64,000 bases of DNA from Thermoplasmata archaeon (GCA_020348445.1 CP070751.1:5049187-5113186), one strand, 5' to 3'; positions 5,843 to 45,887 are shown, numbered from the stretch's first letter. Notes: generated by a model not told the origin, from the sequence alone. Program-made: numbers and translations.

Positions 5843-5968
5843 AATTACCTCCCCCTTGCGAAGATAATAGAAGGATAATTGAACTTCTAATTTAAATACA
5901 TATTGGATGATAATATAAAATATTGCCAGTTTGTATAACACATATTACTCAACTGGAATAAAATCAAC

Positions 5969-24314: not shown

Positions 24315-25223
24315 ATGGATTACAAGAAAAAAGTGGTTATGCTGGGAGACAGCTCGGTTGGAAAGACCAGTTTGGTAAGACGATTCGTCTTGGACCAGTT
24401 CGAGGATTCCTATATTTCCACCATCGGTAGCAAGTCCACTGTAAAGAAAATAATCATTAAAAAGGGGGGAAAGGACGTCAGCCTCACACTGGTGATATGG
24501 GACGTAATGGGCAGGGTGGGATACACCGGGGCCCATGCTAGGATGTTCAAGGGCGCAGATGGAGCTATCCTGGTTACCGATTTGACGAGAAGGGCAACTC
24601 TGGAGAGCCTCGAAAGATACTGGATCCCATTACTATTGGGAGTTGTTGAAAGCATACCATTGATATTCATAGCCAACAAATCGGATCTGATCCATGAAAT
24701 TGCCTTTGATCCAAATGAAATGGAGTATATTGCCTCCAAGTATAACATAGGGATTTCCAATTCACTCCCCTCAAGCCTTGCCACAGGTTATTTGACCAGT
24801 GCAAAGACCGGGGAGAATGTGGAGTGTGCATTTGAGAGCATTGGTCATTTGCTACTTGCTAAGAAGGCTCCTTGGGATCCAGTCAAGGAATTGTACAAGA
24901 ATCTTTTGGCCAAGGGACCATACAGGGAAAGGGATACGAGGACAACAATCGGTGCTGCAGATGCGATCATCGTAGATTTCTGTAAGGGATATGAGGATGA
25001 GAATCTTGCCATGTTGATGCTGCGTCAGGAGATCATCAGGGCGGGTATGGATATCAACCACCCTTCAAAGGAGAGCCTGGTTAGGCTAGTTGAATTTCTA
25101 GCAGATGCTGAAACTGAATACAAGGACAATAAAACCGTGATTCTGAATAGAAATAAAAGGTTGCTCCTGGCAAGGGGTGCAGTGAAAATGGGAACAAAGA
25201 GAAGGGTGAGAAAAGCTAGATGA
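24315..25223 (+). CDS. Rab/Ras-like small GTPase with a C-terminal helical domain (copy 1)
   Basis: G1 GDSSVGKTS, G2 YISTIG, G3 WDVMGR, G4 NKSD, G5 TSAKTG, plus an extension of about 110 aa. Confidence 0.9.
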   Translation: MDYKKKVVMLGDSSVGKTSLVRRFVLDQFEDSYISTIGSKSTVKKIIIKKGGKDVSLTLVIWDVMGRVGYTGAHARMFKGADGAILVTDLTRRATLESLERYWIPLLLGVVESIPLIFIANKSDLIHEIAFDPNEMEYIASKYNIGISNSLPSSLATGYLTSAKTGENVECAFESIGHLLLAKKAPWDPVKELYKNLLAKGPYRERDTRTTIGAADAIIVDFCKGYEDENLAMLMLRQEIIRAGMDINHPSKESLVRLVEFLADAETEYKDNKTVILNRNKRLLLARGAVKMGTKRRVRKAR

Positions 25224-25349: not shown

Positions 25350-26279
25350 ATGGCTATTAAAAAGAAGATAGTCATGATTGGGGACAGCTGTGTGGGTAAG
25401 ACAAGTATGATAAGGCGTTTTGTATTCAACCATTTTAAGGATTCCTATAGGACCACCATCGGAAGCAAGATAATGAGAAAGGAACTAAATGTTCATAGGC
25501 CTAACAGGACAGAGAATCTCACATTCGTAATTTGGGACCTTATTGGGAGGAAAGGGTACCATGCTTTACATGCCAGGACTTTTGTGGGCGTACATGGAGC
25601 AATTTGTGTTTCTGACCAGACCAAAATGGAGACTCTAGTAAGTTTGGAGGATTACTGGGTTCCTTCCTTGTTCAATGTCGTTGAGCACGTACCCTTGGTC
25701 TTCGTCTGCAATAAATCCGACCTAAAAGGGGAGGTCGAATTTGAATATGAGGACTTAGTGAATGTGGCCAGAGAATATAACGGAAATTTTGATGAATTTC
25801 TTCCTACAGGGCTTAAATCTAGCTATACCACGAGTGCAAAAGATGGAAGCAACGTCGAAAGGGCATTCGAGAGCTTGGGACACCTTGTGCTATCCAGTGA
25901 AGAACTTCATAATCCAGTAAAAGAGCTCTATGAAAGCCTTGTGGCCATAGGTATCAGTAGATCCAAGGAAAAGACAACACCCCTCGGCGCATTAGATGCC
26001 CTAATAGTAGATTTCTGCGAGGAGTTCGAGGATTCGAGGCTGGCCATGTTAATTCTACGCCAAGAAATAGAAAGGGCTGAAATAAATATAAACAATCCTA
26101 CAAAAGCAAGAATTCTTAAATTTGTAGAATATCTTGCAGAGGCTGAGATTGAGTTTCTCGATGAAAAAACGGTACACTCCAATTTGGAAAAGAGGTTGAG
26201 CTGGGCAAAACGTATTGTGGATCGAGGATATCTTTACTATACTGAGAATGCTTTTGAGACTCTAAGGCCATCAATATAA
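25350..26279 (+). CDS. Rab/Ras-like small GTPase with a C-terminal helical domain (copy 2)
   Basis: GDSCVGKTS, YRTTIG, WDLIGR, NKSD, TSAKDG; same C-terminal domain. Confidence 0.9.
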   Translation: MAIKKKIVMIGDSCVGKTSMIRRFVFNHFKDSYRTTIGSKIMRKELNVHRPNRTENLTFVIWDLIGRKGYHALHARTFVGVHGAICVSDQTKMETLVSLEDYWVPSLFNVVEHVPLVFVCNKSDLKGEVEFEYEDLVNVAREYNGNFDEFLPTGLKSSYTTSAKDGSNVERAFESLGHLVLSSEELHNPVKELYESLVAIGISRSKEKTTPLGALDALIVDFCEEFEDSRLAMLILRQEIERAEININNPTKARILKFVEYLAEAEIEFLDEKTVHSNLEKRLSWAKRIVDRGYLYYTENAFETLRPSI

Positions 26280-26393: not shown

Positions 26394-26519
26394 TGTAACC
26401 ACGTGTGGTTACAAGGTATTATAATAGAATATAACTTTTTTTTCAGAAGTAGGAGGAAATATATGAAAAAAAAGCATAAAAAAGCCCTTTTTCTCAGAGG
26501 GAGGAGGTGATTTGAAATG
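26394..26519 (+). promoter_or_regulatory. Palindromic operator, TATA box and double-SD leader (copy A)
   Basis: TGTAACCAC-GT-GTGGTTACA (26394-26413), TTATAA box, AGGAGG, short uORF, GGAGGTGA; nearly identical to 28081-28206. Confidence 0.8.
26463..26510 (+). CDS. Putative 15-aa leader peptide MKKKHKKALFLRGRR
   Basis: Own AGGAGG SD at 26451-26456; stop overlaps the SD of the subtilase; the same peptide is encoded at 28150-28197 (TTG start, one synonymous change). Confidence 0.45.
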   Translation: MKKKHKKALFLRGRR

Positions 26520-27938
26520 AGAAAAAAGATGGCAATTGGAATGGTTTTGACACTAATCGTGGTGGCTTTTGTTGGGATACCAATTAATGTGGGTGCCGAG
26601 GAAAATGAGGCAGTAACTCCCCAATTAACGCGCAGCCCATTTAATGGACCAGGATGTGGCATGTCGTTATTAACAACCTTACAAAGTAGCAGTAGCAATT
26701 CGCTTATGGAAATTGTTCCTTCTTGGGTGGACATTGTGGATGCAGAAGTCGTATCAAACGACGGTGAAGGTGTCTATATAGCTGTAATAGACACAGGGCT
26801 TATAGAAGCTTGGCCATACTTCTTCTCAGAGGCGAATATCGCCTGGGAATTGGGCAAGGGTTTCAGCTATGATATAACGTGGGATCCCACTATTGAGGAT
26901 CCTGTATATGGTGAACTTCTTGACCAGCGGGTATTGGGTCCACTTCGTGACGACCGTGGATTTGTGACCAATGAATATGGATATGGACACGGTACCTTTA
27001 CGACAAGCTTGATAACTGGCTACAGACTCGGAGACTTCTGGGTAAGAGGTGTTGCACCAAAAGCAACGATAATTCCAGTGCTCATATATGACACTTGGTT
27101 GGTTGATTGCCCAGATCCTACCTATCCAGGCTGTTATGGCGGAAAAATCAAACATCAGGGCTTCACATACGAATCGATGGCTGCGGGTATCAACTATATT
27201 GCAGACCTCGCAGAAATTCTAGATGGAAAAGTCATTATAAGCCTGAGTATGGGCTGGTTCTGGCCATCAGAAATTTTAGAAGATGCAGTTAACAATGCAA
27301 TTGACAAGGGTGTAATCTTCATTGCATGCGCAGGTAATGAAGGCTACACTGGAATGCGTTGGCCAGCTGCATATCCACAAGTAATTTCCGTTGGTGCTGC
27401 AGGTTGGACTGAGAATTGGGTCCCAGGATTCAATCCAGATTACTGGCTAAATGATGTGCCTGAAAAACTCAATACAAAGGATGTCTGGGGAAACAATTGG
27501 CAAATTTATCTTACGGAGTACAGCTCCCGACCTAATAAAGATCTTGGACAAAAGCCTAATGATCTAGACCTCACTACAATAGCTTCCTGGGTTTTCACCC
27601 CATGGCAAATGGATGTTTATTGGGATGGTATCGAGTGGATTACTTCAGAGCCAACTTATGGTTTTGGAGGAGGTACAAGTGCTGCCACACCTATTGTGGC
27701 CTCGATCGCAGCACTAGTCTTGCAAGACCATCCAGAACTAAATCAACCTGAAATGGAAAAGATTCTAAAGAACGCAGCGAGAGGTCTACCCTTGGCATGC
27801 AATGGAGCTTGGCTTTTTGAATTTCATTGGTTCGAAGGAGCTTTCCGCTATGGATACTTTGAATGGCAAGGAACAGACTATGGCGCAGGATTTCTTCAGG
27901 CAGATGCGGCATTGAAAGCTGCTAAGACACATGCATGA
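26517..27938 (+). CDS. Secreted S8 (subtilisin-like) serine peptidase
   Basis: Signal peptide; catalytic VIDTG, GHGT, AGNEG oxyanion, GTSAATP. Confidence 0.92.
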   Translation: MRKKMAIGMVLTLIVVAFVGIPINVGAEENEAVTPQLTRSPFNGPGCGMSLLTTLQSSSSNSLMEIVPSWVDIVDAEVVSNDGEGVYIAVIDTGLIEAWPYFFSEANIAWELGKGFSYDITWDPTIEDPVYGELLDQRVLGPLRDDRGFVTNEYGYGHGTFTTSLITGYRLGDFWVRGVAPKATIIPVLIYDTWLVDCPDPTYPGCYGGKIKHQGFTYESMAAGINYIADLAEILDGKVIISLSMGWFWPSEILEDAVNNAIDKGVIFIACAGNEGYTGMRWPAAYPQVISVGAAGWTENWVPGFNPDYWLNDVPEKLNTKDVWGNNWQIYLTEYSSRPNKDLGQKPNDLDLTTIASWVFTPWQMDVYWDGIEWITSEPTYGFGGGTSAATPIVASIAALVLQDHPELNQPEMEKILKNAARGLPLACNGAWLFEFHWFEGAFRYGYFEWQGTDYGAGFLQADAALKAAKTHA

Positions 27939-28080: not shown

Positions 28081-28206
28081 TGTAACCACATGTGGTCACA
28101 AGGTATTATTATAGAATATAACTTTTTTCTCAGAAATAGGAGGAAATATTTGAAAAAAAAGCATAAAAAAGCCCTTTTTCTCAGGGGGAGGAGGTGATAT
28201 GAAATG
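28081..28206 (+). promoter_or_regulatory. Palindromic operator, TATA box and double-SD leader (copy B)
   Basis: TGTAACCAC-AT-GTGGTCACA (28081-28100); the 126-bp block differs from copy A by only a few bases. Confidence 0.8.
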
Positions 28207-29433
28207 AGAAGAAAGATAGCCTATTTGATGGTCGTGGCTTTGGTTGCAATGGTGTTTTCTGCTGTGCCCATGTCCGTGAGCGCAACCTGGACTGGAGATG
28301 TCACAATCCTTTCAGACGGAACCGTTGTTCCAGCAGACGCGCCAATTCATGTTAATGGAATGAAATACACACTAACTGACGACATTCTCGGAAGTATTAC
28401 AATCCAGATGTCTAGCATAACATTGGATGGCGCCGGTCATACTCTAGAGGGTACTGGACTCGGTTATGGAATTTTCTTGTTTGGTTTGTCAGGTATAACA
28501 ATCAAGGATTTTATAGTCAAGAATTATGACATTGGCATCATCACGGTGTTTTGTGACACCAGCACCATAAAAGAAAACGAGGTCTCGGACTGTTATAACG
28601 CTGGCATCCACCTTTACGGTTCTAATGATAATACAATAAAGGAAAACAAATTGCATAACAACTTTTGGGAAGGTATCTGGCTTGAGGAGTCCAGCAATAA
28701 CATCATAAAAGATAACGAGGCCTGGAAAAACGGTGAAGCGGGTATTTGGCTTTGGTATTGGTGTGATAACAATGTCATAAAAGATAACAACCTTCATGAG
28801 AACGGTGATCCAACCTGGGGAGCTGGTGTCTTTCTGATGTACTATTGCGACAATAACCTAATAAGAGATAACGATGCTTCAAACAAAAACGGTGTCGGCA
28901 TCGCTCTATGGGGATCCGACGAAAACACTGTGAGCGAAAACACTATCTCACGCAATTTGGTGGGTGGTGTCTACGTATACTTCTGTACCGGTGGAAATAT
29001 AATAACAAAAAATACTATCAGTAACAATTATGCATTCGGACAAAATGGCATTCGTTTGTGGTCTTCCAGTGGAACTATCGTAAGCCAGAACACCATTTCG
29101 GGCAGCTATGGAGGTCTCCTTATCTACAAAAACCCCGAAGGAACAAGCAACTTGATCACAGAGAACACGATTCGTAACAATTACAAAGGCATTCAATTAA
29201 GTTACGATTCTTACGACAATCAAATCCACCACAATAATTTCATGAACAACGATATCCAAGCACAAGACCATGGGATAGGGAACCTATTTGACGATGGTTC
29301 AGAGGGCAACTTCTGGAGCGACTACAAGGGCAAGGACAATGATAAAGACGGCATTGGAGACACGCCCTATTTGACTGAAGGTGCAGCAGGTTCGCAGGAC
29401 AACTGTCCACTTATGAAACCCTGGAACTGGTAG
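28204..29433 (+). CDS. Secreted NosD-like right-handed parallel beta-helix protein (copy 1)
   Basis: Signal peptide; ITLDGAGHTLEG; GIxLxxSxxNxIxxN repeats; C-terminal GNFWSDYKGKDNDKDGIGDTPY...DNCPLMKPW. Confidence 0.88.
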   Translation: MRRKIAYLMVVALVAMVFSAVPMSVSATWTGDVTILSDGTVVPADAPIHVNGMKYTLTDDILGSITIQMSSITLDGAGHTLEGTGLGYGIFLFGLSGITIKDFIVKNYDIGIITVFCDTSTIKENEVSDCYNAGIHLYGSNDNTIKENKLHNNFWEGIWLEESSNNIIKDNEAWKNGEAGIWLWYWCDNNVIKDNNLHENGDPTWGAGVFLMYYCDNNLIRDNDASNKNGVGIALWGSDENTVSENTISRNLVGGVYVYFCTGGNIITKNTISNNYAFGQNGIRLWSSSGTIVSQNTISGSYGGLLIYKNPEGTSNLITENTIRNNYKGIQLSYDSYDNQIHHNNFMNNDIQAQDHGIGNLFDDGSEGNFWSDYKGKDNDKDGIGDTPYLTEGAAGSQDNCPLMKPWNW

Positions 29434-29586: not shown

Positions 29587-29712
29587 ATGGAAACAGTGGA
29601 CCTTTCAGAGGAATACGAACAATTGTACCTCCTCTGCCTCGAAGACGGGCCAGATGAAATCAAAGAGGCAGGAGTCAACAAGGAACTTTAGTACAACAGG
29701 ATGAAGGATAAG
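29587..29712 (+). pseudogene. Decayed 5' fragment of the GNAT gene (38853) at a duplication junction
   Basis: METVDLSEEYEQLYLLCLEDGPDEIKEAGVNKEL*YNRMKDKG vs MEIVDLSEEHEQLYFLCLEDWSDEIKEAGEHKKLWYNRMKDKG; TGG->TAG at 29689-29691; the upstream intergenic DNA also matches 38745-38852. Confidence 0.85.
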
Positions 29713-30021
29713 GGCCCATACAGGCAAAGGGATACGAGGACCACAATTGGTGCAGCAGATGCGATCATAGTAGATTTCTGTAAGGGATATGAAGATGAGA
29801 ATCTTGCCATGTTGATGCTGCGGCAGGAGATCATAAGGGCGGGTATGGATATCAACCACCCTTCAAAGGAGAGCCTGGTCAGGCTAGTTGAATTTCTAGC
29901 AGATGCCGAAACTGAATATAAGGATAATAAAACCGTGATTCTGAATAGAAATAAAAGGTTGCTCCTGGCAAGGGGTGCCGTAAAAATGGGAACAAAAAGA
30001 AGAGTGAGAAGGGCTAGATGA
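29701..30021 (+). CDS. Stand-alone copy of the GTPase-1 C-terminal helical domain (106 aa)
   Basis: Matches the 3' part of GTPase 1 (about 24910-25223) with only two amino-acid changes; starts at a GNAT-derived Met codon. Confidence 0.65.
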   Translation: MKDKGPYRQRDTRTTIGAADAIIVDFCKGYEDENLAMLMLRQEIIRAGMDINHPSKESLVRLVEFLADAETEYKDNKTVILNRNKRLLLARGAVKMGTKRRVRRAR

Positions 30022-30230: not shown

Positions 30231-33044
30231 ATGACAGCCATAGACTCACAAATTCCACTGGTAGATAGAATCCGTGAGCTTGGAGAACTCAAAGATCATT
30301 TACATAACGCGATGCAAGGCCAAGGGAACCTTTTATTCATCGCAGGCGAGGCTGGAGTGGGTAAAACCAGACTAGTTGAAGAGTTAAAGACTTATGCTCA
30401 ATCCCAGGGCGTCCAGATATTACAGGGCGGGTCCTTATATGAATCCCTCACTCCCTATATGCCATTTATCGAAGCTTTAAGATCAGCAAACCTAGATCAT
30501 TTATTTGCACGGGAAGACCCTCCAAAAGTAGAGTGCGTTTATCTGATAACAGATACGGGTCTATTGATTAAGGATGTGGCGCGTGAGGAATCCAAACTCG
30601 ATTCGACTATTTTCGCAGGTATGCTTACTGCCGTGGGGGACTTTGTGAAAGATTCTCTTAGCATGCTCAGCGGGGAGGAAAGGAAAGAGATGCTCGACAC
30701 TCTTGGTTATGAGAAATATCGTATTCTGATTGAGAGAGGAGCAAACACCAACCTCGCAATAATCTTAACCGGTAGAGAGAACGAGTTTTTAGTCAACGAT
30801 ATGAAGGAGGTTCTCGCCAACATTGACCAAGACTATGGTAATGTGCTAAAAGTTTGGGATGGTGATGACAACAGTGTCAAAGGAATCGAGAATGAATTAA
30901 AACCATTAATCACCTCTGGAAAATACGATGGTATTGATTACGCCAAAGACAATCCTCAAATCAAAAGGAATTTGTTATTCGAGAACATTTTACTGGGAAT
31001 TGAACGACATGCCAAAACCAATCCATCAATCCTCTGTATCGAGGATATGCAATGGGCAGATCCCTCTTCATTGGCACTAATGCATTATATTGCTAGGAAT
31101 ACAAGAAAATGCAACTTATTGATACTCGGAACCTATAGACCTGAGGATGTGAGTATTACAAGGGAAGAAAAGGTCCATCATTTAGTCGAAGCAATGCAGT
31201 TGATGAGCCGAGAGGATCTATATTCCAAGATTGAACTGGAAAGGTTGGAAGAGGTATATATTGATGAAATGCTTTCTTCACTATTGACGAAAACTGATTT
31301 TACTGATGAATTCATGAAACAAATGTATAAAGACACAGAGGGCAACCCGTTTTTCATAGTGGAACTTATTAGGATGTTGGTAGAGGAGGGAACAATTGAA
31401 AAGAAGGGTGATATCTGGATACTGACTAAAGATTTAAAAGACGTGCATATACCTTCGAAAGTAAACGTTGCCGTCAATCGGAGACTGAATCGGGTGAAAG
31501 AAGAGGGGAGAGAAATTTTAGATATTGCAGCGGTGATCGGTGAAGAGTTCACATCAGCAATATTGGCAAAAGCGGCAAATCTTGAAAAAGTTCACTTATT
31601 GAAGCAATTAAGGATTTTGGAACAAAATCACAAACTGATCCGCTCTGTCGATACAAAATATAAATTTGACCATGCAAAGATCAAAGAAGTTACTTACAGT
31701 AAAATCCCCTTAGAATTGAAAATGGAATACCATGCATTAATTGCAAACGCTATCGAAATATTGAACGAGGACGATCTTGATAATGTAATCGGAGATCTGG
31801 CATTCCACTACTATCATTGCAAGAACAGGGAAAAGGCACTTCTCTATCTCATCAAAGCAGCAGAGAGGGCCAAGAAGGATTACTCAAATGAAGAGGCAAT
31901 ATTGTTCTATACCCAAGCTCAGGAACTCGAAGAGAATGCGCAGAAAAGAATGGAAATATTCGAGAGACTGGGAGAGGTTTATAATCTGATTGGAGATTAT
32001 GATAAGAGCTTGGAATCGTTCAATAGTGCCTTAGAATTGACTAAAGGAAATAAGAATAAGATAGCGGAGATTAAGGCAAATATTGGGAGAATCTACCGGA
32101 AAAAGGGAGAATATAATGAATCCATAAGGAAGTTAACAGAAGCCTTGGATTTAGTCAAAAATGAAGGAGGCAAAGAGGAAGCACTTGTCCTCGAAAAAAT
32201 CGGCATGACTTATCTTAGGAGAGGAGATTACAAAAGAGCCTTTGAGTACTTAGAGAAGAGCCTAGAGATAGGGGAAATAATCGGTGACCAGAAAGATATA
32301 GCAACTTGTCTCAAGAACATCGGTTGTATGTATTGGTCAAGAGGTGAACACGAAAAAGCTCTCAAGAACTTCGAGAAAAGCCTGAAGATACATGATAAGA
32401 TCGGCGACCAGCCAGGTATTCATGCCTGCCTCAACAACATCGGCGAAGTGCATCGTATTAAAGGAGAATACGAAAGAGCCCTAGAGTGGTTGGAGAAAAG
32501 CCTGAGGATAGGGGAGAAGATCGGCAACCAAATTGGTATTGGATTTAACCTCATCAACATCGGCAATGCGTACACCCAAATAGGAGAATATGATAAGGCA
32601 CTTAAGCACTTAGAGAAAGGCCTTAAGATAGGTAAGAAGATCGGTGCACAAACTGTCATTGCCGATGGCTACTGGGTTACGGCTGAAACATATCTGAAGA
32701 AAAGTGACATGAAAGGAGCATTAGATTTCTGCGATCGGGTATTCGATTTATCCAAAAAGACGGGTTCTAAGGAACATATCGCACACTCAAGGAGAATCTT
32801 TGGTGGTATCTATTGCGAGCAAAAGAAGTGGGAAGAATCAATTGAGAATTTCCAGGAGAGCTTAAAAATTTTTAATGAAATTGGAATGAAGAATGAATTA
32901 GGCAATGCCTACTATGAGTTCGGATTGATGTGGAAAGAAAAAGGAAACACCGAGAAGGCAAAAGAACATCTGAACAGTGCTCTTGATATTTTCGAGAAAT
33001 TGAATTTGGAGAAGCAAGCGGAAAAAGTAAGAAAGGAGTTATAA
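30231..33044 (+). CDS. STAND-class (AAA_16-like) ATPase with an inserted longin-like domain, winged helix and TPR array (copy 1)
   Basis: Walker A GEAGVGKT; Walker B ILCIEDMQWAD; GNPFF; LDIAAVIGEEF; KFDH; about ten TPRs; insert of about 135 aa at 30519-30920. Confidence 0.88.
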   Translation: MTAIDSQIPLVDRIRELGELKDHLHNAMQGQGNLLFIAGEAGVGKTRLVEELKTYAQSQGVQILQGGSLYESLTPYMPFIEALRSANLDHLFAREDPPKVECVYLITDTGLLIKDVAREESKLDSTIFAGMLTAVGDFVKDSLSMLSGEERKEMLDTLGYEKYRILIERGANTNLAIILTGRENEFLVNDMKEVLANIDQDYGNVLKVWDGDDNSVKGIENELKPLITSGKYDGIDYAKDNPQIKRNLLFENILLGIERHAKTNPSILCIEDMQWADPSSLALMHYIARNTRKCNLLILGTYRPEDVSITREEKVHHLVEAMQLMSREDLYSKIELERLEEVYIDEMLSSLLTKTDFTDEFMKQMYKDTEGNPFFIVELIRMLVEEGTIEKKGDIWILTKDLKDVHIPSKVNVAVNRRLNRVKEEGREILDIAAVIGEEFTSAILAKAANLEKVHLLKQLRILEQNHKLIRSVDTKYKFDHAKIKEVTYSKIPLELKMEYHALIANAIEILNEDDLDNVIGDLAFHYYHCKNREKALLYLIKAAERAKKDYSNEEAILFYTQAQELEENAQKRMEIFERLGEVYNLIGDYDKSLESFNSALELTKGNKNKIAEIKANIGRIYRKKGEYNESIRKLTEALDLVKNEGGKEEALVLEKIGMTYLRRGDYKRAFEYLEKSLEIGEIIGDQKDIATCLKNIGCMYWSRGEHEKALKNFEKSLKIHDKIGDQPGIHACLNNIGEVHRIKGEYERALEWLEKSLRIGEKIGNQIGIGFNLINIGNAYTQIGEYDKALKHLEKGLKIGKKIGAQTVIADGYWVTAETYLKKSDMKGALDFCDRVFDLSKKTGSKEHIAHSRRIFGGIYCEQKKWEESIENFQESLKIFNEIGMKNELGNAYYEFGLMWKEKGNTEKAKEHLNSALDIFEKLNLEKQAEKVRKEL

Positions 33045-33045
33045 A

Positions 33046-35856
33046 ATGGCAATCATTGATTCACATATACCATTAGTGGACAGAGTACTGGAGCTCGAAG
33101 AGCTGAAGACCCACCTCCACAACGCAACCAAGGGCCAAGGCAATCTTGTCTTCATCGCAGGCGAGGCTGGAGTGGGTAAAACCAGGTTGGTTGACGAGTT
33201 GAAAACCTATGCCCAATCTCAAGGTATCCAGATATTGCAGGGCTGGTCCTTATATGAATCCCTAACTCCCTACATGCCCTTTGTAGAAGCCTTGAGATCT
33301 GCAAATTTGGAACATCTGTTCTCACGGGAGGACCCTCCAAAAGTGGAGTGTGTATATCTTATAACGGACACTGGGTTATTGATAAAGGAAGTGCTGCGGG
33401 AGGAAACCAAACTAGATTCTACAATATTCGCAGGCATGCTTACAGCGGTCGGAGACTTCGTGAAGGATTCACTGACAATGCTCAGCGGGGAGGAAAAGAA
33501 TGAGGCACTCAATTCTCTTGGATATGAAAATTATCGGATTCTAATTGAAGTCGGTACGAATACAAATCTAGTTGTTATACTCACAGGAAAGGAAAACGAG
33601 TTTTTGATCAATGATATGAAAGAGGTTCTTGCTAACGTTGACCAGGAGTATGGAAATGTGCTAAAAGCCTGGGATGGTGATGACAATAGCGTTAGAGGAA
33701 TCGAGAATGTGTTAAAGCCACTAATCACCTCTGGAAAATATGACGGTATAGATTATGCAAAGGATGACCCAAAGATCAAGAGGAATAGATTATTTGAGAA
33801 CATCTCGTTAGGAATTGAAAGATACGCTAAAGTCAATCCTTCTATACTCTGCATTGAAGATTTGCAGTGGGCTGATCCTTCATCAATGGCACTCATGCAT
33901 TATGTAGCTCGAAATACACGAAAGTGCAATTTACTGATTCTTGGAACTTACAGACCTGAAGATGTTACTGCAATTAAGGAAGGGAAAGCACATCATTTGA
34001 TCGACGCAATGCAATTAATGAGCCGTGAGGATTTATATCAAATGATTGAATTGGAAAGGTTGGAAGAAGATCATATGGATGAGATGCTTACATCGCTTTT
34101 GGGCAAGACTGATTTCACAGATGAATTTAAGAAACAACTTTATAAAGAAACAGAAGGCAACCCATTTTTCATGGTATCACTCATCAGGATGTTGATTGAA
34201 GAAAAAACTATCGAGATGAAAGATGATGTTTGCACTCTCACGAAAGACTTAAAAGAAGTGCATATACCTTCGAAGGTGCACGATGTAATCATACGGAGAC
34301 TGAGTCGAGTGAAGGAAGAGAGGAGAGAAGTTTTAGATATTGCGGCGGTGATAGGTGAAGAGTTCACATCGACCTTATTGGCAAACACGACAAAACTCGA
34401 AAAAGTTCACTTGTTGAAGCAATTAAGAACCTTGGAACAAAGCCATAAACTGATTCGTTCATTCGGGCAAAAATACAAATTCGATCACGCAAAGATAAAA
34501 GAGATATTGTACCTCAAAATTCCCGAAGAATTGAGAATGGAATACCATACAATAATTGCAGATTCTATTGAAACCCTAAACAAGGACAATTTGGATGATA
34601 TGGTTGAAGACTTAGCATTTCACTACTATCATTGCAGGAACAGGGAAAAAGCCCTTCCATATCTCCTCAAAGCAGCGGAGAAGGCGAAAAAGGATTATTC
34701 AAATGAAGAGGCAATAAGGTTCTACAATGAAGCCCTGGAATTAGAAGAAGATGAACAGAAGAGGAGGGAAATATTCGAGGAAATAGGTGATATTTATGGG
34801 TTGATTGGAGATTATAATAAGAGCATAGAATCTTTAGAATGTGGACTGGAATTAGCTAGACAAAAGAATATAATAGCAGAAATCAAAGTGAAGATTGGTA
34901 GAATTTGTCAAAAAAAAGGAGAATACGACGATTCCATAAGAATAAGCACTGAGGCACTTGATTTGGTAAAAGGTGATGAATGCAAGGAGGAAGCGGAGGC
35001 TCTCGCTGCAATCGGTAATGTTTACCAATTCAAAGGAGAAAACGACAGAGCTCTCGAATATTTCAATAAGAGCTTGATGATAAGGGAGAAGATTGGAGAT
35101 CAAAAGGGAATTGCACGCATATTCAATGGTTTTGGTATATTACACGCAGATAAAGGGGAATACGACAACGCCCTTAAGGAATTCGAAAAGAGCTTAGAGA
35201 TAAAGAAAAAGATTGGTGACATACGGGAAATTGCCAAATCCTTCAACAATATCGGCCTTATGTACAATCTTACGGGAGACCTCGATAGAGCTCTGGGATA
35301 TTTCGAAAGGGGCTTAAAGATGCTTAAGAAGATTGGCGACTTGCGTTTAATTGGGGTCACCTTAAATAGTATTGGTGAAATGCATCTTATTAAAGAACAA
35401 TATGACGAAGCTATTAAAAATTATGAAAAGAGTATGGAGATTTGCGATAAGAATCAGATTAGAAGACCGGCAACTTACAATTATTGCGGACTTGCGGAGG
35501 CATATTATAAAAAAGGGAATCTTAAGAAAGCCTTTCATTTCTGTAATATGGCCTACGATTCATCCAAAGAGATTGGTGTCATGGAGAATGTTGCACACTC
35601 AAAGAGAATCTACGGCATGATCTATCGAGAGCAGAAGAAATGGGAGGAATCTATTGAGAATTTCGAGGATAGCATCAGAATTTTCAACGATATTAAAATG
35701 GAGAGGGGGTTGGGAAAATTGTATTACGAATATGGGTTGATGTGGAAGACTAAAGGGGATTCTGAGAAGGCAAAGGAGCATCTGAATAAAGCACTTAATA
35801 TCTACATGAAATTGAAGTTGGAAAAGCACGCGGAGAAGGTAAGAAAGGAGTTATAA
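33046..35856 (+). CDS. STAND-class ATPase with an inserted longin-like domain and TPR array (copy 2)
   Basis: Collinear paralog; GEAGVGKT, ILCIEDLQWAD, GNPFF; insert at about 33334-33735; 1-bp gap to both neighbours. Confidence 0.88.
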   Translation: MAIIDSHIPLVDRVLELEELKTHLHNATKGQGNLVFIAGEAGVGKTRLVDELKTYAQSQGIQILQGWSLYESLTPYMPFVEALRSANLEHLFSREDPPKVECVYLITDTGLLIKEVLREETKLDSTIFAGMLTAVGDFVKDSLTMLSGEEKNEALNSLGYENYRILIEVGTNTNLVVILTGKENEFLINDMKEVLANVDQEYGNVLKAWDGDDNSVRGIENVLKPLITSGKYDGIDYAKDDPKIKRNRLFENISLGIERYAKVNPSILCIEDLQWADPSSMALMHYVARNTRKCNLLILGTYRPEDVTAIKEGKAHHLIDAMQLMSREDLYQMIELERLEEDHMDEMLTSLLGKTDFTDEFKKQLYKETEGNPFFMVSLIRMLIEEKTIEMKDDVCTLTKDLKEVHIPSKVHDVIIRRLSRVKEERREVLDIAAVIGEEFTSTLLANTTKLEKVHLLKQLRTLEQSHKLIRSFGQKYKFDHAKIKEILYLKIPEELRMEYHTIIADSIETLNKDNLDDMVEDLAFHYYHCRNREKALPYLLKAAEKAKKDYSNEEAIRFYNEALELEEDEQKRREIFEEIGDIYGLIGDYNKSIESLECGLELARQKNIIAEIKVKIGRICQKKGEYDDSIRISTEALDLVKGDECKEEAEALAAIGNVYQFKGENDRALEYFNKSLMIREKIGDQKGIARIFNGFGILHADKGEYDNALKEFEKSLEIKKKIGDIREIAKSFNNIGLMYNLTGDLDRALGYFERGLKMLKKIGDLRLIGVTLNSIGEMHLIKEQYDEAIKNYEKSMEICDKNQIRRPATYNYCGLAEAYYKKGNLKKAFHFCNMAYDSSKEIGVMENVAHSKRIYGMIYREQKKWEESIENFEDSIRIFNDIKMERGLGKLYYEYGLMWKTKGDSEKAKEHLNKALNIYMKLKLEKHAEKVRKEL

Positions 35857-35857
35857 A

Positions 35858-36733
35858 ATGGCAATTAAAAAGAAAATCGTCCTTTTGGGCGATAGCGCTG
35901 TCGGCAAGACCAGTCTCATCCGAAGATACGTTTTCAACCAGTTCAAAGACTCCTACATCGCCACAATAGGAACCAAGATAACAAGAAAAGAGCTAAAAAT
36001 CCAAAGACCTCACCATTCTGTGGACCTCACCTTCGTGATATGGGATGTAATCGGTAGAGAAGGCTACCATGGCTTGCATGCCAGGACCTTTGCCGGAATA
36101 TCCGGTGCCATTCTGGTTGCTGACTTGACACGGAAGGAAACCTTAGAGAACCTGGAGCGATATTGGATTCCTCTTCTTCTCAAAGTCGTGGATAATGTCC
36201 CTTTAATTTTTGCTTGTAACAAATCCGATTTGGTAGGTGAGTACGAGTTTGAGCCAGAGGACATTACCAAGATGGCAGAAAGATACAACGGACGCATTGC
36301 ACGCATCCTCCCAAAAGGACTGTCTATCTCATATTCCACAAGTGCTAAGACAGGGAGCAATGTGGAACACACATTCGAAAGCCTTGGACACCTTCTGGTT
36401 TCCAGCTTCGATCTACAGGACCCCGTAAAGGAGCTTTACCAGAACGTGATTGCAATGGGCATTCACAGATCATCTGATAAGACAACGCCTATAGGAGCCC
36501 TTGATTCAATTATAATCGATTTCTGCGAGGGTTTTAAGGATTCCAGGATATCCATGATGATCCTGCGCCAGGAAATCGCAAGATCGGGTCTTGACATCAA
36601 CAATCCCACCAAAGCGGGAATTCTTACTGTGGTGGAATACCTAGCTGAAGCAGAGAACGAATTCAAGGATGAGAAGGAAGTTATTGATAACATGGAAAGA
36701 AGACTACAATGGGCTCAGGGTATAATTGAATGA
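35858..36733 (+). CDS. Rab/Ras-like small GTPase with a C-terminal helical domain (copy 3)
   Basis: GDSAVGKTS, YIATIG, WDVIGR, NKSD, TSAKTG; coupled to STAND copy 2 by TAA-A-ATG. Confidence 0.9.
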   Translation: MAIKKKIVLLGDSAVGKTSLIRRYVFNQFKDSYIATIGTKITRKELKIQRPHHSVDLTFVIWDVIGREGYHGLHARTFAGISGAILVADLTRKETLENLERYWIPLLLKVVDNVPLIFACNKSDLVGEYEFEPEDITKMAERYNGRIARILPKGLSISYSTSAKTGSNVEHTFESLGHLLVSSFDLQDPVKELYQNVIAMGIHRSSDKTTPIGALDSIIIDFCEGFKDSRISMMILRQEIARSGLDINNPTKAGILTVVEYLAEAENEFKDEKEVIDNMERRLQWAQGIIE

Positions 36734-36936: not shown

Positions 36937-37128
36937 ATGACCCTAAAAGAGAGAAAGATAAAAACCCTTAAGATCAGGATCGAAACAGAGCTTCTGGAGC
37001 GTATCAAAGAGGAAGCTCAGAAACAGGATACAGATTTATCCACCTATGTAAGGTGGTGTCTTAGGACAGGGTTGTATCTGGAGGATCTGAGCCAATTTCT
37101 TCAATCGAGAATCGATGAGAACAGGTGA
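36937..37128 (+). CDS. Ribbon-helix-helix (CopG/Arc-like) DNA-binding protein
   Basis: KTLKIRI strand + ETELLERIKEEAQKQ helix + DLSTYVRWCL helix. Confidence 0.8.
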   Translation: MTLKERKIKTLKIRIETELLERIKEEAQKQDTDLSTYVRWCLRTGLYLEDLSQFLQSRIDENR

Positions 37129-37217: not shown

Positions 37218-37410
37218 TGTGGCCACATGTGGGCACAGGAGATTATATATAATTATCGGATGGCGTGGCCACAAGGGTTTATTTCAGTTTATTTCAATTC
37301 ATTTTTCAGATGGAGGAAAAGACTTTGGAAAACAAAATAAAAAGTCAGAGCGTTTTTCTGAAGTTTGGATATAGCCCCTTATTCTCAGAGGGAGGAGGTG
37401 ATTCGAAATG
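37218..37410 (+). promoter_or_regulatory. Operator, TATA box and double-SD leader (copy C)
   Basis: TGTGGCCAC-AT-GTGGGCACA (37218-37237), TTATATAT, extra half-site GTGGCCACA (37265-37273); ends in TTCTCAGAGGGAGGAGGTGATTCGAAATG like copies A and B. Confidence 0.7.
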
Positions 37411-38709
37411 AGAAAAGCCGTAGCATATTTGATAGTGTTTGCCTTGGCTGCAATGGTATTGGCCACAGTTCCTATGTCCACTTCTGCTGGGTATGTTGGG
37501 GATGTTACGATCCTTAAGAATGGAAAAGTGGATCCGGCAAATGCGCCTATTTACGTTTCAGGATCCATATATACAATGACGGATGATATCACAGGGACCA
37601 TAACCATCGAAAAGTCCGGAATCACACTGGATGGTGCAGGTTTCACAGTAGGAGGTTCGGGAACAGGCAATGGAATATATCTTGAAGATGTGAACGGAGT
37701 AACCCTCATGAACCTGAATATCCATGGATTTTTGGATGGAATCATGATGATATCTTCCAACCACAATACAATAAAACAAAATACAGTGTCGCAATGTGTT
37801 GATGATTGTATTGATCTGAAAGGCAGCGATGGCAACACTATCAAAGAAAACATGATAACAAACAGTGGCCAAGTTAATATTGGCGATACCACCGATGAAT
37901 TATATGCAAATGGTATATTCCTTGAAGATTGTGATGATAACACCATAAAGGAAAATACAGTTTCCTATATCATAGATGACGCAATCTATCTGATATATTC
38001 AAGCGATAACACGGTAAAAACGAACATAGTTACAGATAGTACCTGGGGTATTGTCGCAGAAATGTCAAGCCATAACAATATAATAAAGGAAAACACAGTT
38101 ACAGATATGAGCTCAAATAGCATTGTCGTAGCCCTTAATTGTTTTAACAACAATATATGCCATAATGTAGTCTCCAATGCTGTATGGGGTGGTATTGCGG
38201 TAGCTAGCAATGCCAACAACAATATGGTAAAGGAGAACACCCTTTACAACACGAGAATTGGTGTTATGGTTTTCATGTCCAGTGGAAATTGCATTTGGGC
38301 CAATTCGGTTTCTGGTTGTATTTGGGAGGGAATCCGACTGCAATTTTCAAACGGAAACACGATTAAGGGAAACACATTGGAGCACAACTATCGAGGTATC
38401 CTGCTTATCAGGAATCCAGCAGGTGGAAGTAACCTTATAAAAGAGAATTCTATAAGGGAAAATGATGTTGGGATGATCCTCAGTTATAATTCATACGACA
38501 ATGTTGTTTACCACAACAATTTTGTGGCAAATGGAAACCAAGCAATTGACAATGGCATAGGAAATTGTTGGGACAATGGCGCTGAGGGCAACTACTGGAG
38601 CGATTATTCAGGGATGGATATGGATGATGACGGAATTGGGGATACCCCTTACTATATCAATGGTGTGGCAGGTTCCGCAGATAATTATCCATTAATGAAT
38701 CCTTGGTAG
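37408..38709 (+). CDS. Secreted NosD-like beta-helix protein (copy 2)
   Basis: Paralog of 28204-29433; GNYWSDYSGMDMDDDGIGDTPY...DNYPLMNPW. Confidence 0.88.
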   Translation: MRKAVAYLIVFALAAMVLATVPMSTSAGYVGDVTILKNGKVDPANAPIYVSGSIYTMTDDITGTITIEKSGITLDGAGFTVGGSGTGNGIYLEDVNGVTLMNLNIHGFLDGIMMISSNHNTIKQNTVSQCVDDCIDLKGSDGNTIKENMITNSGQVNIGDTTDELYANGIFLEDCDDNTIKENTVSYIIDDAIYLIYSSDNTVKTNIVTDSTWGIVAEMSSHNNIIKENTVTDMSSNSIVVALNCFNNNICHNVVSNAVWGGIAVASNANNNMVKENTLYNTRIGVMVFMSSGNCIWANSVSGCIWEGIRLQFSNGNTIKGNTLEHNYRGILLIRNPAGGSNLIKENSIRENDVGMILSYNSYDNVVYHNNFVANGNQAIDNGIGNCWDNGAEGNYWSDYSGMDMDDDGIGDTPYYINGVAGSADNYPLMNPW

Positions 38710-39666: not shown

Positions 39667-42021
39667 TTATTTGGATACGTCCTTCACTTTTGCCCTATTC
39701 TCCTTTTCCACCCTCCCAATCTTCTTAATCTTCTTTACGAACATATCGATCATCTTGGGCATGACCTTGAACGTGGGAAGCAACATGGGCATGAACTGCA
39801 GCCTGTCCTTTTCTATCCCCAGTTCCTCCATCTTACTCCCGTACTCTTCGAGTCTCTTTTCAATTACCTCAGAAAGCTCCCCCCCTTCCTCATCAGACAA
39901 CAATATACCATCTGCGCCTTTTGAAAATGCGAACATAATATGTGCAATACTTATTCGTGCCGCAGAAGGCACCCTGATTATACGAATCTCGGGTGAATAG
40001 GACATCCTGGCCGTACCTGTAGAGTCTGCAGCCGTGTACGAGAGCCTGTCACCAAAGAATCCAAGTATCACTGGCTCTTTTTCTTCCTCCTTGTCCGCTA
40101 GAATGCCAGATATCTCGGCTAAAATCTGGGAATCTTTGTAATGATGCATGTCCAATGCATTATCATCGCATTCAGGAATACAGGCACCGCAGCCTGTGCA
40201 TGCAAAGGAGTCAAGAATGATCTCGGGCTCTATTGATATTGCAGAAACAGGGCATACAGGTACACATTTTCCGCATTTGGTACAGTTCTCTGGGATGATA
40301 AAGGCCTTTATCGGGTCCATCACCATCATGCCGTCACCAATAAACTCAATTGCCTTGGCTGCTGCACTGTTTGCATCTGTTACACATTCATGAATATCCT
40401 TGGGACCCAAAGCGCAGCCTGCAGAAAATATACCCACATGATGCGTGCTAACTGGATCCAGCTTGGGATGTTTTTCTGCAATAAAACCATCAGGACCAAG
40501 GGGGATTTTCAGAATCTTTGCCAAATTTTCGCTGTCCTTGGCAGGAAGTAAGGCAGGGCACAGAACCACCATATCAAATTCATTGTCAAAAATCTCACCT
40601 GCTGCCACATCCTCAGCCCGAACCACAAGGCCATTTTCTGAGGGGACAACCTCTGCACCTCGACTTTTTACAAAATTTACCTTGTACTCATCCTGGGCCC
40701 TCAAGTAGAACTCCTCGCAACCCCTGGTAGAAGCGCGGATATCAAGGTAGTACACCCATACTTCCATGTATCTAAAATATTCCCGTAATTGAACAGAGTG
40801 CTTGATTGCATATGTACAACCTACCTTGCAACAGTGGGCAACTCCCTTATTCACATCCCTTGAGCCAACACAAAGAAGATAACCGATCTTCTTCACCCTT
40901 TTTCCATCACTCAACCTCTTCAGCACCTTTCCCTCTGCCGCTTCATTGATAAACAATCTCTCCATTTGCATGGCAGATATGACATCTGGATGCTCAAAAT
41001 TGTACTCGGCTAGAGACATGGAATCAAATAGCTCAAATCCTGTGGCTGTGATAATTACCCCCACATCCAGCTCCAGTATCTTTTGCTCATCCTCTAAATT
41101 CACAGCAGCAACAGGGCATGCATCCACACAAGCTCCACACTCAGTACAGTTTTCAAAGTCTATGACATAAGAGGGCGGGACAGCCTGGGGAAATGGTTTG
41201 TAAATCGCTTTTCTCTGATACAGACCCTCATCAAACTCATGCACTACCTCAACAGGACATCCTTCAGAGCATTCACCGCAACACAGGCAAAGCTCTGTAT
41301 CCACACCCCTTGGTTTTTGGGTTATCTTGACGTTAAAATTACCTGGTGAACCTTCAACCCCTACAACCTCTGAACAAGTGAGTAGGGTGATATTTGGTTG
41401 AATGCTTAAGTCCGCCATTTTCGGAGCCAGGATGCAAGGCGAGCAGTCAAGTGTGGGATAGGTTTTACTGAGCTGTGCCATGTGACCACCTATTGAGGGA
41501 TTTCTTTCCAATAAAGTCACATGGTATCCGCTTTGGGCAAGCTGCAATGAAGAGGTAATACCGGCGATCCCACCGCCTATTACCAGCACATTCTTATTGA
41601 TATCCACTTTCTTGGATTCCAATGCTTCCAACTCCCTTGCCCGAAGAACTCCTGCGCGAACCAGATCAAGTGCTTTTTGCGTACCCAGTTGTTTGTCATC
41701 GTGAATCCATGAGCACTGCTCCCTTAGATTCACTTGAACAACAAGATACGGATTTAGACCTGCCTCCTCTGCAACATTCTTAAAAAGAATCTCGTGCATA
41801 TGTGGGGAGCATGCAGAAACAACCATCCCATCAAGCTCTTTTTCCTTGATTGCATTTTTTATTGACTCCAGATTCAGCTTAGAGCAAGTGAACTGTGTAA
41901 CTTCAACAAATGCAACACCCTCGATATTTTTCACTTTTTCTCCAAGTGATTCCACATCCACGGTTTTTGAGATGTTGCCACCGCAGCCGCATATGAACAC
42001 ACCTATTTTTTTTTCCGGCAT
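39667..42021 (-). CDS. hdrA: Heterodisulfide reductase subunit A-like flavoprotein with a fused C-terminal MvhD-like domain
   Basis: GVFICGCG, SACSP, NLREQCSW, VIGGGIAG, KTYPTLDCSPCIL, CVGSRD..CCKVGC, four CxxCxxCxxxC(P) ferredoxin motifs; tail YTAADSTG..RIIRVPSAARI..AFSKGADG. Confidence 0.92.
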   Translation of the reverse strand: MPEKKIGVFICGCGGNISKTVDVESLGEKVKNIEGVAFVEVTQFTCSKLNLESIKNAIKEKELDGMVVSACSPHMHEILFKNVAEEAGLNPYLVVQVNLREQCSWIHDDKQLGTQKALDLVRAGVLRARELEALESKKVDINKNVLVIGGGIAGITSSLQLAQSGYHVTLLERNPSIGGHMAQLSKTYPTLDCSPCILAPKMADLSIQPNITLLTCSEVVGVEGSPGNFNVKITQKPRGVDTELCLCCGECSEGCPVEVVHEFDEGLYQRKAIYKPFPQAVPPSYVIDFENCTECGACVDACPVAAVNLEDEQKILELDVGVIITATGFELFDSMSLAEYNFEHPDVISAMQMERLFINEAAEGKVLKRLSDGKRVKKIGYLLCVGSRDVNKGVAHCCKVGCTYAIKHSVQLREYFRYMEVWVYYLDIRASTRGCEEFYLRAQDEYKVNFVKSRGAEVVPSENGLVVRAEDVAAGEIFDNEFDMVVLCPALLPAKDSENLAKILKIPLGPDGFIAEKHPKLDPVSTHHVGIFSAGCALGPKDIHECVTDANSAAAKAIEFIGDGMMVMDPIKAFIIPENCTKCGKCVPVCPVSAISIEPEIILDSFACTGCGACIPECDDNALDMHHYKDSQILAEISGILADKEEEKEPVILGFFGDRLSYTAADSTGTARMSYSPEIRIIRVPSAARISIAHIMFAFSKGADGILLSDEEGGELSEVIEKRLEEYGSKMEELGIEKDRLQFMPMLLPTFKVMPKMIDMFVKKIKKIGRVEKENRAKVKDVSK

Positions 42022-45721: not shown

Positions 45722-45887
45722 CACAACACCCCAATTATGCAAAATCTCAGGTGATTTTGCATTCGCCACCATACCAAATTCCAGGTACAAATAGTTTTTT
45801 ACAAAGACCTTGAGCATAGAAATTACAAAATCCTTTTAAGCAATAAAACAATCACACAAACCAAAGAATCCAAAGGTGGAAATGTAA

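Follow-up and report, generated by a model that had tools for sequence, protein, structure and literature searches.

Longin and roadblock dimers serve as platforms, guanine nucleotide exchange factors (GEFs) or GTPase-activating proteins (GAPs) for small GTPases (PMC3747258, PMC10933270), and such platforms, together with Rab- or Rag-like GTPases, are usually viewed as eukaryotic signatures inherited from Asgard archaea. Wuichet and Sogaard-Andersen described Rup GTPases whose genes adjoin those of membrane proteins made up, in this order, of a cytoplasmic domain of uncharacterised nature, a transmembrane (TM) helix and OmpA (PMC4316618), and Surkont and Pereira-Leal noted that Aciduliprofundum and a Thermoplasmatales archaeon each have a single Rab-like gene (PMC4915359). 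Here we describe a locus of an uncultured Thermoplasmata archaeon (GCA_020348445.1, CP070751.1:5049187-5113186; this whole stretch of 64,000 nucleotides is the window, in which positions are counted unless a contig is named) that encodes two signal transduction ATPases with numerous domains (STAND), each carrying a longin-type domain (LD) within its P-loop domain, together with a Rab-like GTPase and a ribbon-helix-helix (RHH) protein. In the literature searched we found no earlier account of a STAND ATPase with an internal longin or roadblock domain, of such a domain on the cytoplasmic tails of giant receptors, or of a network of this kind in Thermoplasmata, in keeping with a preliminary description of the locus, made from the sequence alone, whose author knew of none.

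The core of the locus consists of three plus-strand genes with 1 nt between neighbours, namely STAND ATPase 1 (P0001, 937 aa, 30231-33044), its tandem paralog STAND ATPase 2 (P0002, 936 aa, 33046-35856), and the Rab-like small GTPase P0003 (291 aa, 35858-36733). These open reading frames (ORFs) and their spacing are as first described, and all of the peptide strings cited for them were found in the translations. P0001 comprises an AAA_16 P-loop domain with the inserted LD (aa 99-228, 30525-30914, plus strand), a helical region and about nine tetratricopeptide repeats (TPRs); the LD of STAND 2 (33340-33729, plus strand) is 84% identical to that of STAND 1. The insert boundaries proposed earlier (30519-30920 and 33334-33735) agree closely with those of the modelled domain. 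Assignment to the STAND NTPases rests on an AAA_16 match of 72 bits (cut-off 32.6, ~1e-19), and the C-terminal repeats were recognised by TPR_12 (2.6e-59), TPR_MalT (9e-17) and TIGR03903 (residues 241-849).

Walker A (GEAGVGKT, aa 38-45) and Walker B (ILCIEDxQWAD, aa 267-277) were present in the translations of both STAND proteins. The AAA_16 profile aligned to residues 10-298 of P0002 over profile positions 2-166 of 167, and its match to P0001 fell into two pieces; the stretched and split alignments therefore point to some 130-145 extra residues inside the P-loop domain. The insertion is real, because two AAA_16-TPR paralogs in the same genome (L059) that lack it align on both flanks, from PYxPFIEA to RxxLFE...LLxxEDxQWA, with only a short linker between. 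The position between Walker A and Walker B that had been read from the sequence of both ATPases is thus borne out by the profile alignment and by the paralogs. The insert is under purifying selection, with 61 synonymous and 22 non-synonymous codon differences between P0001 and P0002 over 150 codons.

The two ATPases are 69% identical overall, with ~85% identity over the N-terminal 300 aa, the LD included, and 32-46% over the central TPRs (residues 650-850). As a sequence pattern this fits two sensors of differing ligand specificity that share one signalling head, and it neither demands nor rules out a heterodimer. The longin heterodimer of two STAND proteins suggested in the preliminary description is not a conserved feature, as most related loci have a single STAND gene beside the GTPase, and tandem arrays of up to five STAND-LD paralogs occur in other genomes (G088). 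Of the 401 genomes sampled from the class, 84 gave a contiguous match to STAND plus LD. These genomes are interrelated, so that counts by family describe a pattern and do not constitute a statistical test. The genome under study contains a fourth STAND-LD paralog (C1:5143179-5145995, L057/L060) with ~40% N-terminal identity.

To assign a fold to the insert we relied on an AlphaFold2 (AF2) model of P0001 aa 89-242, built on an alignment (A1) of 21 natural LD copies from the genome, in which W-x-G, inside the WDGD motif, is invariant. The model had a predicted local distance difference test (pLDDT) score of 82.3 and a predicted template modelling (pTM) score of 0.79. DSSP assigned strands at model residues 11-19, 24-29, 69-72, 75-81 and 85-92, and helices at 37-59, 97-119, 125-128 and 132-140, giving the order beta-beta-alpha-beta-beta-beta-alpha-alpha (E-E-H-E-E-E-H-h-H) with no N-terminal helix and two C-terminal helices. 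The top matches in a Foldseek search of the PDB were MglB, LAMTOR subunits of Ragulator, Mon1-Ccz1 and TRAPP (E ~1e-4, probability 1.0). An exhaustive VIA structural alignment against 48,161 chains, where a typical best match has a Z score of 7-8, returned the longin domains of TRAPP (3cue_A, Z 12.0, 127 residues, 2.9 Å), CPLANE (Z 11.9), VAMP7 (4afi_B, Z 11.7, 122 residues, 3.5 Å), Sec22 (3egd_C, Z 11.3, 123 residues, 2.8 Å) and a Lokiarchaeota longin (8yqg_B, Z 10.2, 131 residues, 3.7 Å), along with the roadblock proteins Asgard Roadblock3 (Z 10.9) and MglB (Z 10.3). All leading matches from both searches thus belong to the longin/roadblock superfamily.

Longin and roadblock domains are told apart by their C-terminal helices or N-terminal helix, respectively (PMC10933270). 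The roadblock topology alpha-beta-beta-alpha-beta-beta-beta, with its N-terminal helix, was not seen in the model, which begins with strand 1. In the membrane-tethered copies of the domain the TM helix ends ~20 residues before strand 1, and so leaves no space for such a helix. Longins aligned to the LD over ~120-135 residues, the C-terminal helices included, and roadblocks over ~100-108 residues (residues ~9-117). As modelled, then, the insert is a longin-type fold, and the strand and helix order first read from the sequence is upheld because the model ends with two helices and begins with none. A classical roadblock identity was considered and set aside on the topology and the longer longin alignments, the gap in Z being only 1-2. 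Curated families offered little here. Stand-alone copies of the LD matched no Pfam family, and a profile of the domain searched against PDB sequences returned only designed proteins and noise. The only hint of a curated longin family came from one Atlas cluster with a cosine score of 0.87 to the LD, in which 22% of the members carry Fuz_longin_1. A PF03259 (Robl_LC7) scan of the whole genome found six genes, none at the position of an LD; hhalign of the LD alignment against these six roadblock proteins gave a weak match (probability 44%, E 2.3e-4) with 102 columns in register. The automatic annotation at JGI names some LD homologs 'Roadblock/LC7/MglB family', the name of COG2018. One of the six classical Robl_LC7 genes (C1:3660256-3660420) adjoins a short GTPase gene, an MglB/MglA arrangement.

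The domain forms a large family. The 5.16-Mb genome holds 21 copies in 18 ORFs, the carriers being four STAND-TPR proteins, about eleven giant proteins, two small membrane-anchored proteins, one protein with three copies, and two others. The giant proteins (1600-5200 aa) are single-pass, with the LD in the cytoplasmic tail ~20 residues after the last TM helix; the LDs of the giant and TM-anchored proteins show 25-42% identity, and Pfam models for Ig-like, lamin-tail and S-layer-like domains matched the one giant protein that was scanned. When 1.84 billion representative proteins were searched with a profile of the domain, 6646 proteins, showing many different architectures, matched it at E 0.001 or better. 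Among the sampled genomes of the class, 231 of 401 encode the domain, and named homologs come from metagenome-assembled genomes of Thermoplasmata and Methanomassiliicoccales, with one from Hermodarchaeota. Two arrangements of these genes may be recorded. At C1:3131528-3153037, six tandem tailed Rab-like GTPases with Gln or Leu in G3 adjoin a 5179-aa single-pass LD surface protein, which is followed by a 2376-aa LD protein; at C1:554290-560805 (L054), a 2171-aa protein with no predicted TM helices carries three LD copies among CARDB and Ig-like segments.

P0003 matched Pfam Ras at 1.2e-28, and its best sequence matches in the PDB were Rab21, Rab11, a Thorarchaeota Rab, Rab5 and Ypt7 (E ~1e-18). 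The G motifs are GDSAVGKT, T36, DVIG, NKSD and SAK. In G3 (WDVIGR) an Arg replaces the catalytic Gln, and the C-terminus (...AQGIIE) is without Cys and thus has no prenylation site. Because it has neither the catalytic Gln nor a C-terminal prenylated Cys, we call P0003 Rab-like rather than Rab. Lacking that Gln, GTPases of this Arg type, as judged from the sequence, probably depend on a partner for hydrolysis. Beyond the G domain P0003 carries a tail of about 104 aa (36419-36730, plus strand), modelled by AF2 as five helices with a pLDDT of 88.7. Searches with this tail gave a best structural Z of 6.8, no Foldseek match at E 0.001 or better, and no Pfam match.

The same tail is encoded alone by a 106-aa ORF (29701-30021, plus strand) 210 nt upstream of STAND 1. 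This ORF duplicates the 3'-terminal part of another GTPase gene (24315-25223), to which it is 89.5% identical in DNA; over 104 codons the two differ by 16 synonymous and only 2 non-synonymous changes, which indicates that purifying selection keeps the tail-only ORF. The source gene and its neighbour at 25350-26279, both on the plus strand, encode two more Arg-type tailed Rab-like GTPases (Ras 4e-27 and 1e-26; G3 WDVMGR and WDLIGR). They lie 4-5 kb upstream of the STAND operon and probably belong to the same neighbourhood. In another genome (L036:480-1363, G088:C19) a GTPase is split into a 197-aa G domain ORF and a 92-aa tail-only ORF, beside an array of five STAND-LD genes, which indicates that the tail acts as an independent module. 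A 762-aa open frame around the GTPase of another locus (L030) was considered as a fusion and rejected, since Pfam recognised no further domain in it and its added length is probably due to an in-frame extension upstream.

The genome encodes ~35 Ras-like GTPases, and in 18 of them a ~100-aa tail at the C-terminus brings the length to 277-310 aa. No more than 6 kb separates 14 of the 18 from an LD gene, although such proximity holds for only 6% of the genome; counted as independent clusters, 6 of 10 are near an LD gene (binomial P ~8e-6). All six Arg-type (WDxxGR) GTPases of the genome are tailed, and for five of them a STAND-LD gene is found at a distance of no more than 5 kb. Those tailed GTPases that are of the Gln/Leu type adjoin giant LD receptors instead, six beside the 5179-aa protein and three beside a 3605-aa protein. 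In other words, STAND-LD genes pair specifically with Arg-type GTPases, and giant LD receptors with the Gln/Leu type.

The preliminary description named a lack of STAND-GTPase linkage in other genomes as a ground for rejecting its reading; the linkage recurs in at least two families besides the genome's own. Across the three the gene order varies, the partners are constant and the GTPase is always of the Arg type. All eight STAND-adjacent GTPases fetched from the two further families (f15 and f20) were Arg-type with a helical tail. By coordinates, a tailed GTPase gene adjoins the STAND gene, on one side or the other, in ~11 of the 20 closest relatives (54% identity or more), and in a broader sample of 20 loci the GTPase and additional STAND paralogs were the only neighbours to recur. 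Within the class, the GTPase tail was found in 153 of 401 genomes, and family by family the tail count never exceeds the LD count; two large families (f6 and f19) gave no match to either. A complex prediction of both LDs with the full GTPase scored 0.04 (mark 0.32) and speaks neither for nor against binding.

The three-gene operon stands as it was first described, but the cassette reaches further, as a gene for a 63-aa RHH protein (36937-37128, plus strand) downstream of the GTPase had been missed. This protein matched Pfam CopG_antitoxin at 29.0 bits (cut-off 28, E 1.9e-6) over residues 5-43, which places it in the RHH family. The genome has only three RHH paralogs of this kind, all just downstream of Arg-type tailed GTPases. 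Homologs stand beside orthologous GTPases in two genomes of the same genus (G029 and G002), and at STAND-GTPase pairs in two further genomes, in the order RHH-STAND-GTPase-RHH (G066) and RHH-STAND-GTPase (G083).

The locus is flanked on both sides by genes for secreted proteins of the NosD/right-handed beta-helix type. Protein 1 (409 aa, 28204-29433, plus strand) matched NosD at 4e-56 and Beta_helix at 5e-41, and protein 2 (433 aa, 37408-38709, plus strand) matched NosD at 8e-38 and has an N-terminal signal-like hydrophobic segment. The promoter regions of the two genes are paralogous to each other, and each contains a 20-bp palindrome beside a TATA-like element. The first, TGTAACCACATGTGGTCACA (28081-28100), a candidate RHH operator, stands ~120 nt upstream of NosD-like gene 1 with the TATA-like element adjoining; the second, TGTGGCCACATGTGGGCACA (37218-37237), a candidate operator of NosD-like gene 2, has a TATA-like element and a half-site repeat GTGGCCACA after it. 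With as many as 3 mismatches permitted, the palindrome TGTGGCCACATGTGGCCACA had four matches in the 5.16-Mb genome against 0.15 expected, and all four fall in neighbourhoods of STAND, GTPase and RHH genes, two of them outside the window, in a paralogous cassette near 17 kb, and two at the window positions just given (28081 and 37218). With an RHH gene downstream and a rare palindrome before both flanking secreted-protein genes, the GTPase, which had been put forward as the likely output, is probably not the last step. For the same reason, the likely final output is transcription, and the two NosD-like genes are candidate regulated targets.

Taken together, these results lead us to propose a sensor-switch-regulator cassette of Thermoplasmata archaea, composed of STAND-LD proteins, an Arg-type GTPase, an RHH protein and its operators, a proposal that in our judgement may prove right or wrong with about equal ease. 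The LD, which sits in a variable surface loop between the two Walker motifs of the STAND ATPase, would, by analogy with MglB, Ragulator, Mon1-Ccz1 and TRAPP, be a docking and regulatory platform for the co-encoded GTPase. A ligand on the divergent TPR arrays would bring about a nucleotide-dependent change or oligomerisation of the STAND protein that alters the presentation of the LD, and this altered presentation would shift the nucleotide state or the availability of the Arg-type GTPase. The GTPase would act through its helical tail on the adjacent RHH protein, which would in turn bind the 20-bp palindromes at the promoters of both NosD-like genes that flank the locus. The data directly support the assigned folds, the presence of the insertion, the linkage of the genes across several families, the pairing of STAND-LD with Arg-type GTPases, and the rarity and position of the palindrome; we infer the link from tail to RHH protein and the binding of the RHH protein to the palindrome.

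The LD is not special to STAND ATPases, being a large family without a Pfam model that also forms the tails of surface proteins. Several points weigh against this proposal. Neither insert matched a Pfam longin or roadblock family, or any other Pfam family, at E up to 10. Among the 20 loci spread over the class, a GTPase was found within ~5 kb in only 5; set against the ~11 of the 20 closest relatives, this indicates that STAND-GTPase adjacency is mainly a feature of the closer clade. Several families (f8, f22 and f26) have LD proteins but no detectable tailed GTPase, and therefore LD roles exist that are independent of this GTPase type. The fourth STAND-LD paralog of the genome (C1:5143179-5145995) has neither a GTPase nor an RHH neighbour, and RHH homologs were not found in the 20 loci of more distant relatives. 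Furthermore, we infer by analogy the contact between LD and GTPase, its direction (GEF or GAP) and its control by the ATPase cycle.

Some of these same observations would suit a different role for the LD, as mainly a dimerisation or adaptor module that pairs with the LD tails of giant proteins or with another STAND protein and so recruits the sensor to membrane receptors, with the GTPase engaged elsewhere (for example by the TPRs) or serving as a parallel client. The same domain ends ~11 giant single-pass and 2 small TM-anchored proteins and occurs three times in the 2171-aa protein, solved roadblock and longin proteins are dimers (PMC10933270), and some lineages have LD proteins with no tailed GTPase detected. 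The strict pairing of STAND-LD with Arg-type and of giant LD with Gln-type GTPases, however, points to dedicated LD-GTPase pairs rather than a shared pool, and no giant LD gene adjoins a STAND operon, so that we consider an adaptor role unlikely, though worth keeping in mind. That the insert decorates the ATPase neutrally or in a purely structural way, with a nearby GTPase drawn by coincidence from GTPase-rich islands, might be argued from the ~35 Ras-like GTPases in the genome and from the mere 5 of 20 distant loci with one nearby; purifying selection on the insert, linkage in three families always to an Arg-type GTPase, and the association within the genome itself (P ~8e-6) make this hardly credible.

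The architecture also invites comparison with NLR-like systems of anti-virus defence or conflict, in which diversifying TPR sensors would detect proteins from an invader, leaving the GTPase/RHH arm or a protease encoded nearby to execute or license the response. In line with such a role are the combination of STAND and TPRs itself, the conserved N-termini and 32-46% identical TPR cores of the tandem paralogs, the arrays of up to five paralogs in G088, the patchy distribution among families, and an S8 subtilase gene (26517-27938, plus strand) that lies 2.3 kb upstream, between the two upstream Arg-type GTPases and NosD-like gene 1. PADLOC, however, returned only generic TPR models, with no defence family and nothing on the GTPase or the tail-only ORF, and Pfam found no recognised effector domain in the three proteins, among them no nuclease, TIR or SIR2 domain, as had been noted before. 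The conserved partners, a GTPase and a predicted DNA-binding protein with candidate operators before secreted beta-helix genes, have the look of gene regulation, and the same LD-GTPase pairing is found on adhesin-like receptors. A defence function therefore seems to us improbable.

Extending the proposed cassette to the rest of the genome and the class, we suggest that a non-Asgard archaeal class may run a large longin-to-Rab-like-GTPase network, in which giant receptors and STAND sensors would present the same platform to cognate tailed GTPases (of the Gln and Arg type, respectively) and the STAND branch would end in an RHH repressor of secreted proteins; this is offered tentatively, with somewhat more doubt than assurance. 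If it is true, the longin-Rab partnership, taken as a hallmark of Asgard archaea and eukaryotes, is widespread in Thermoplasmata and serves both transmembrane and intracellular signalling. A compact operon that encodes sensor, platform, GTPase and predicted DNA-binding protein, with a candidate operator, makes longin control of a GTPase testable with few recombinant proteins. In addition, the analysis names two domain families without a Pfam model, the LD family and the GTPase tail.

The window has other contents of note. On its minus strand, a 1257-aa ORF (42044-45817) fuses serine hydroxymethyltransferase (SHMT, 3e-118) to the glycine-cleavage T-protein (GCV_T, 6e-103), an unusual fusion, and a 784-aa HdrA-like flavoprotein (39667-42021) has several 4Fe-4S domains and an MvhD/FlpD domain at its end. 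Very long ORFs occur at 1022-5941 (minus strand, 1639 aa), 51557-56989 (plus strand, 1810 aa) and 56992-61713 (minus strand, 1573 aa). The genome (G000) is a single contig of 5.16 Mb with an estimated completeness of 82%; sampled relatives of the class have ~1-3.7 Mb.

Among described systems, the MglA-MglB pair of Myxococcus xanthus and Thermus thermophilus resembles the locus in that a gene for a Ras-superfamily GTPase adjoins one for a regulator of roadblock/longin fold, and structures of MglB (6izw_C, 6hjm_A and 3t1r_A) rank among the best that the insert matched. MglB differs in being a free-standing roadblock dimer with an N-terminal helix, whereas the domain described here has longin topology, lies inside a STAND ATPase and has no Robl_LC7 match; the GTPase, too, is Rab-like, with DxxGR and a helical tail. 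Closer in topology are the eukaryotic longin GEF platforms (Bet5/Trs23 of TRAPP, Mon1-Ccz1, Fuzzy/Inturned of CPLANE, and DENN), which match the LD at Z 9.3-12.0 over 127-145 aligned residues in the same order of elements. Their clients are Rabs, which are also the best solved-structure matches of P0003. Their identity to the LD is only 8-15%, however, and the carrier here is a prokaryotic signalling ATPase rather than a trafficking complex, with a GTPase that has no prenylation site.

The Asgard roadblock and longin proteins are likewise archaeal and occur with Rab- or Rag-like GTPases (PMC10933270), and Prometheoarchaeum roadblocks match the LD model at Z 9-10.9. Those proteins are stand-alone or fused to GTPases and are generally not in GTPase operons (PMC10933270), whereas in Thermoplasmata the LD is operon-linked and sits in a STAND ATPase or on giant receptors. 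In bacteria, the actinobacterial conservons (CvnA-D) and the Group 1 Rup systems (PMC4316618) likewise join a sensor and a small GTPase to a protein with a roadblock-type or unknown domain, and the Group 1 Rup GTPases, like P0003, are without the catalytic Gln (PMC4316618). A fold search of the Atlas found an LD-like domain in bacterial OmpA-family proteins (TM-score 0.84 by query), a single structure match that we treat as a lead only; it hints that the cytoplasmic domain encoded beside the Group 1 Rup GTPases may share the LD fold. The locus differs from conservons and Rup systems in that a STAND-TPR ATPase takes the place of a histidine kinase as sensor, sensor and regulator domain share one polypeptide, and the candidate output is an RHH protein. 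Finally, STAND-TPR regulators of the MalT/AfsR type share with P0001 and P0002 an AAA_16 P-loop followed by a MalT-like TPR region. In contrast to them, the ATPases described here have no DNA-binding domain in the polypeptide and carry a longin-type insert, and the relay to DNA would apparently run through a separate GTPase and a separate RHH protein.

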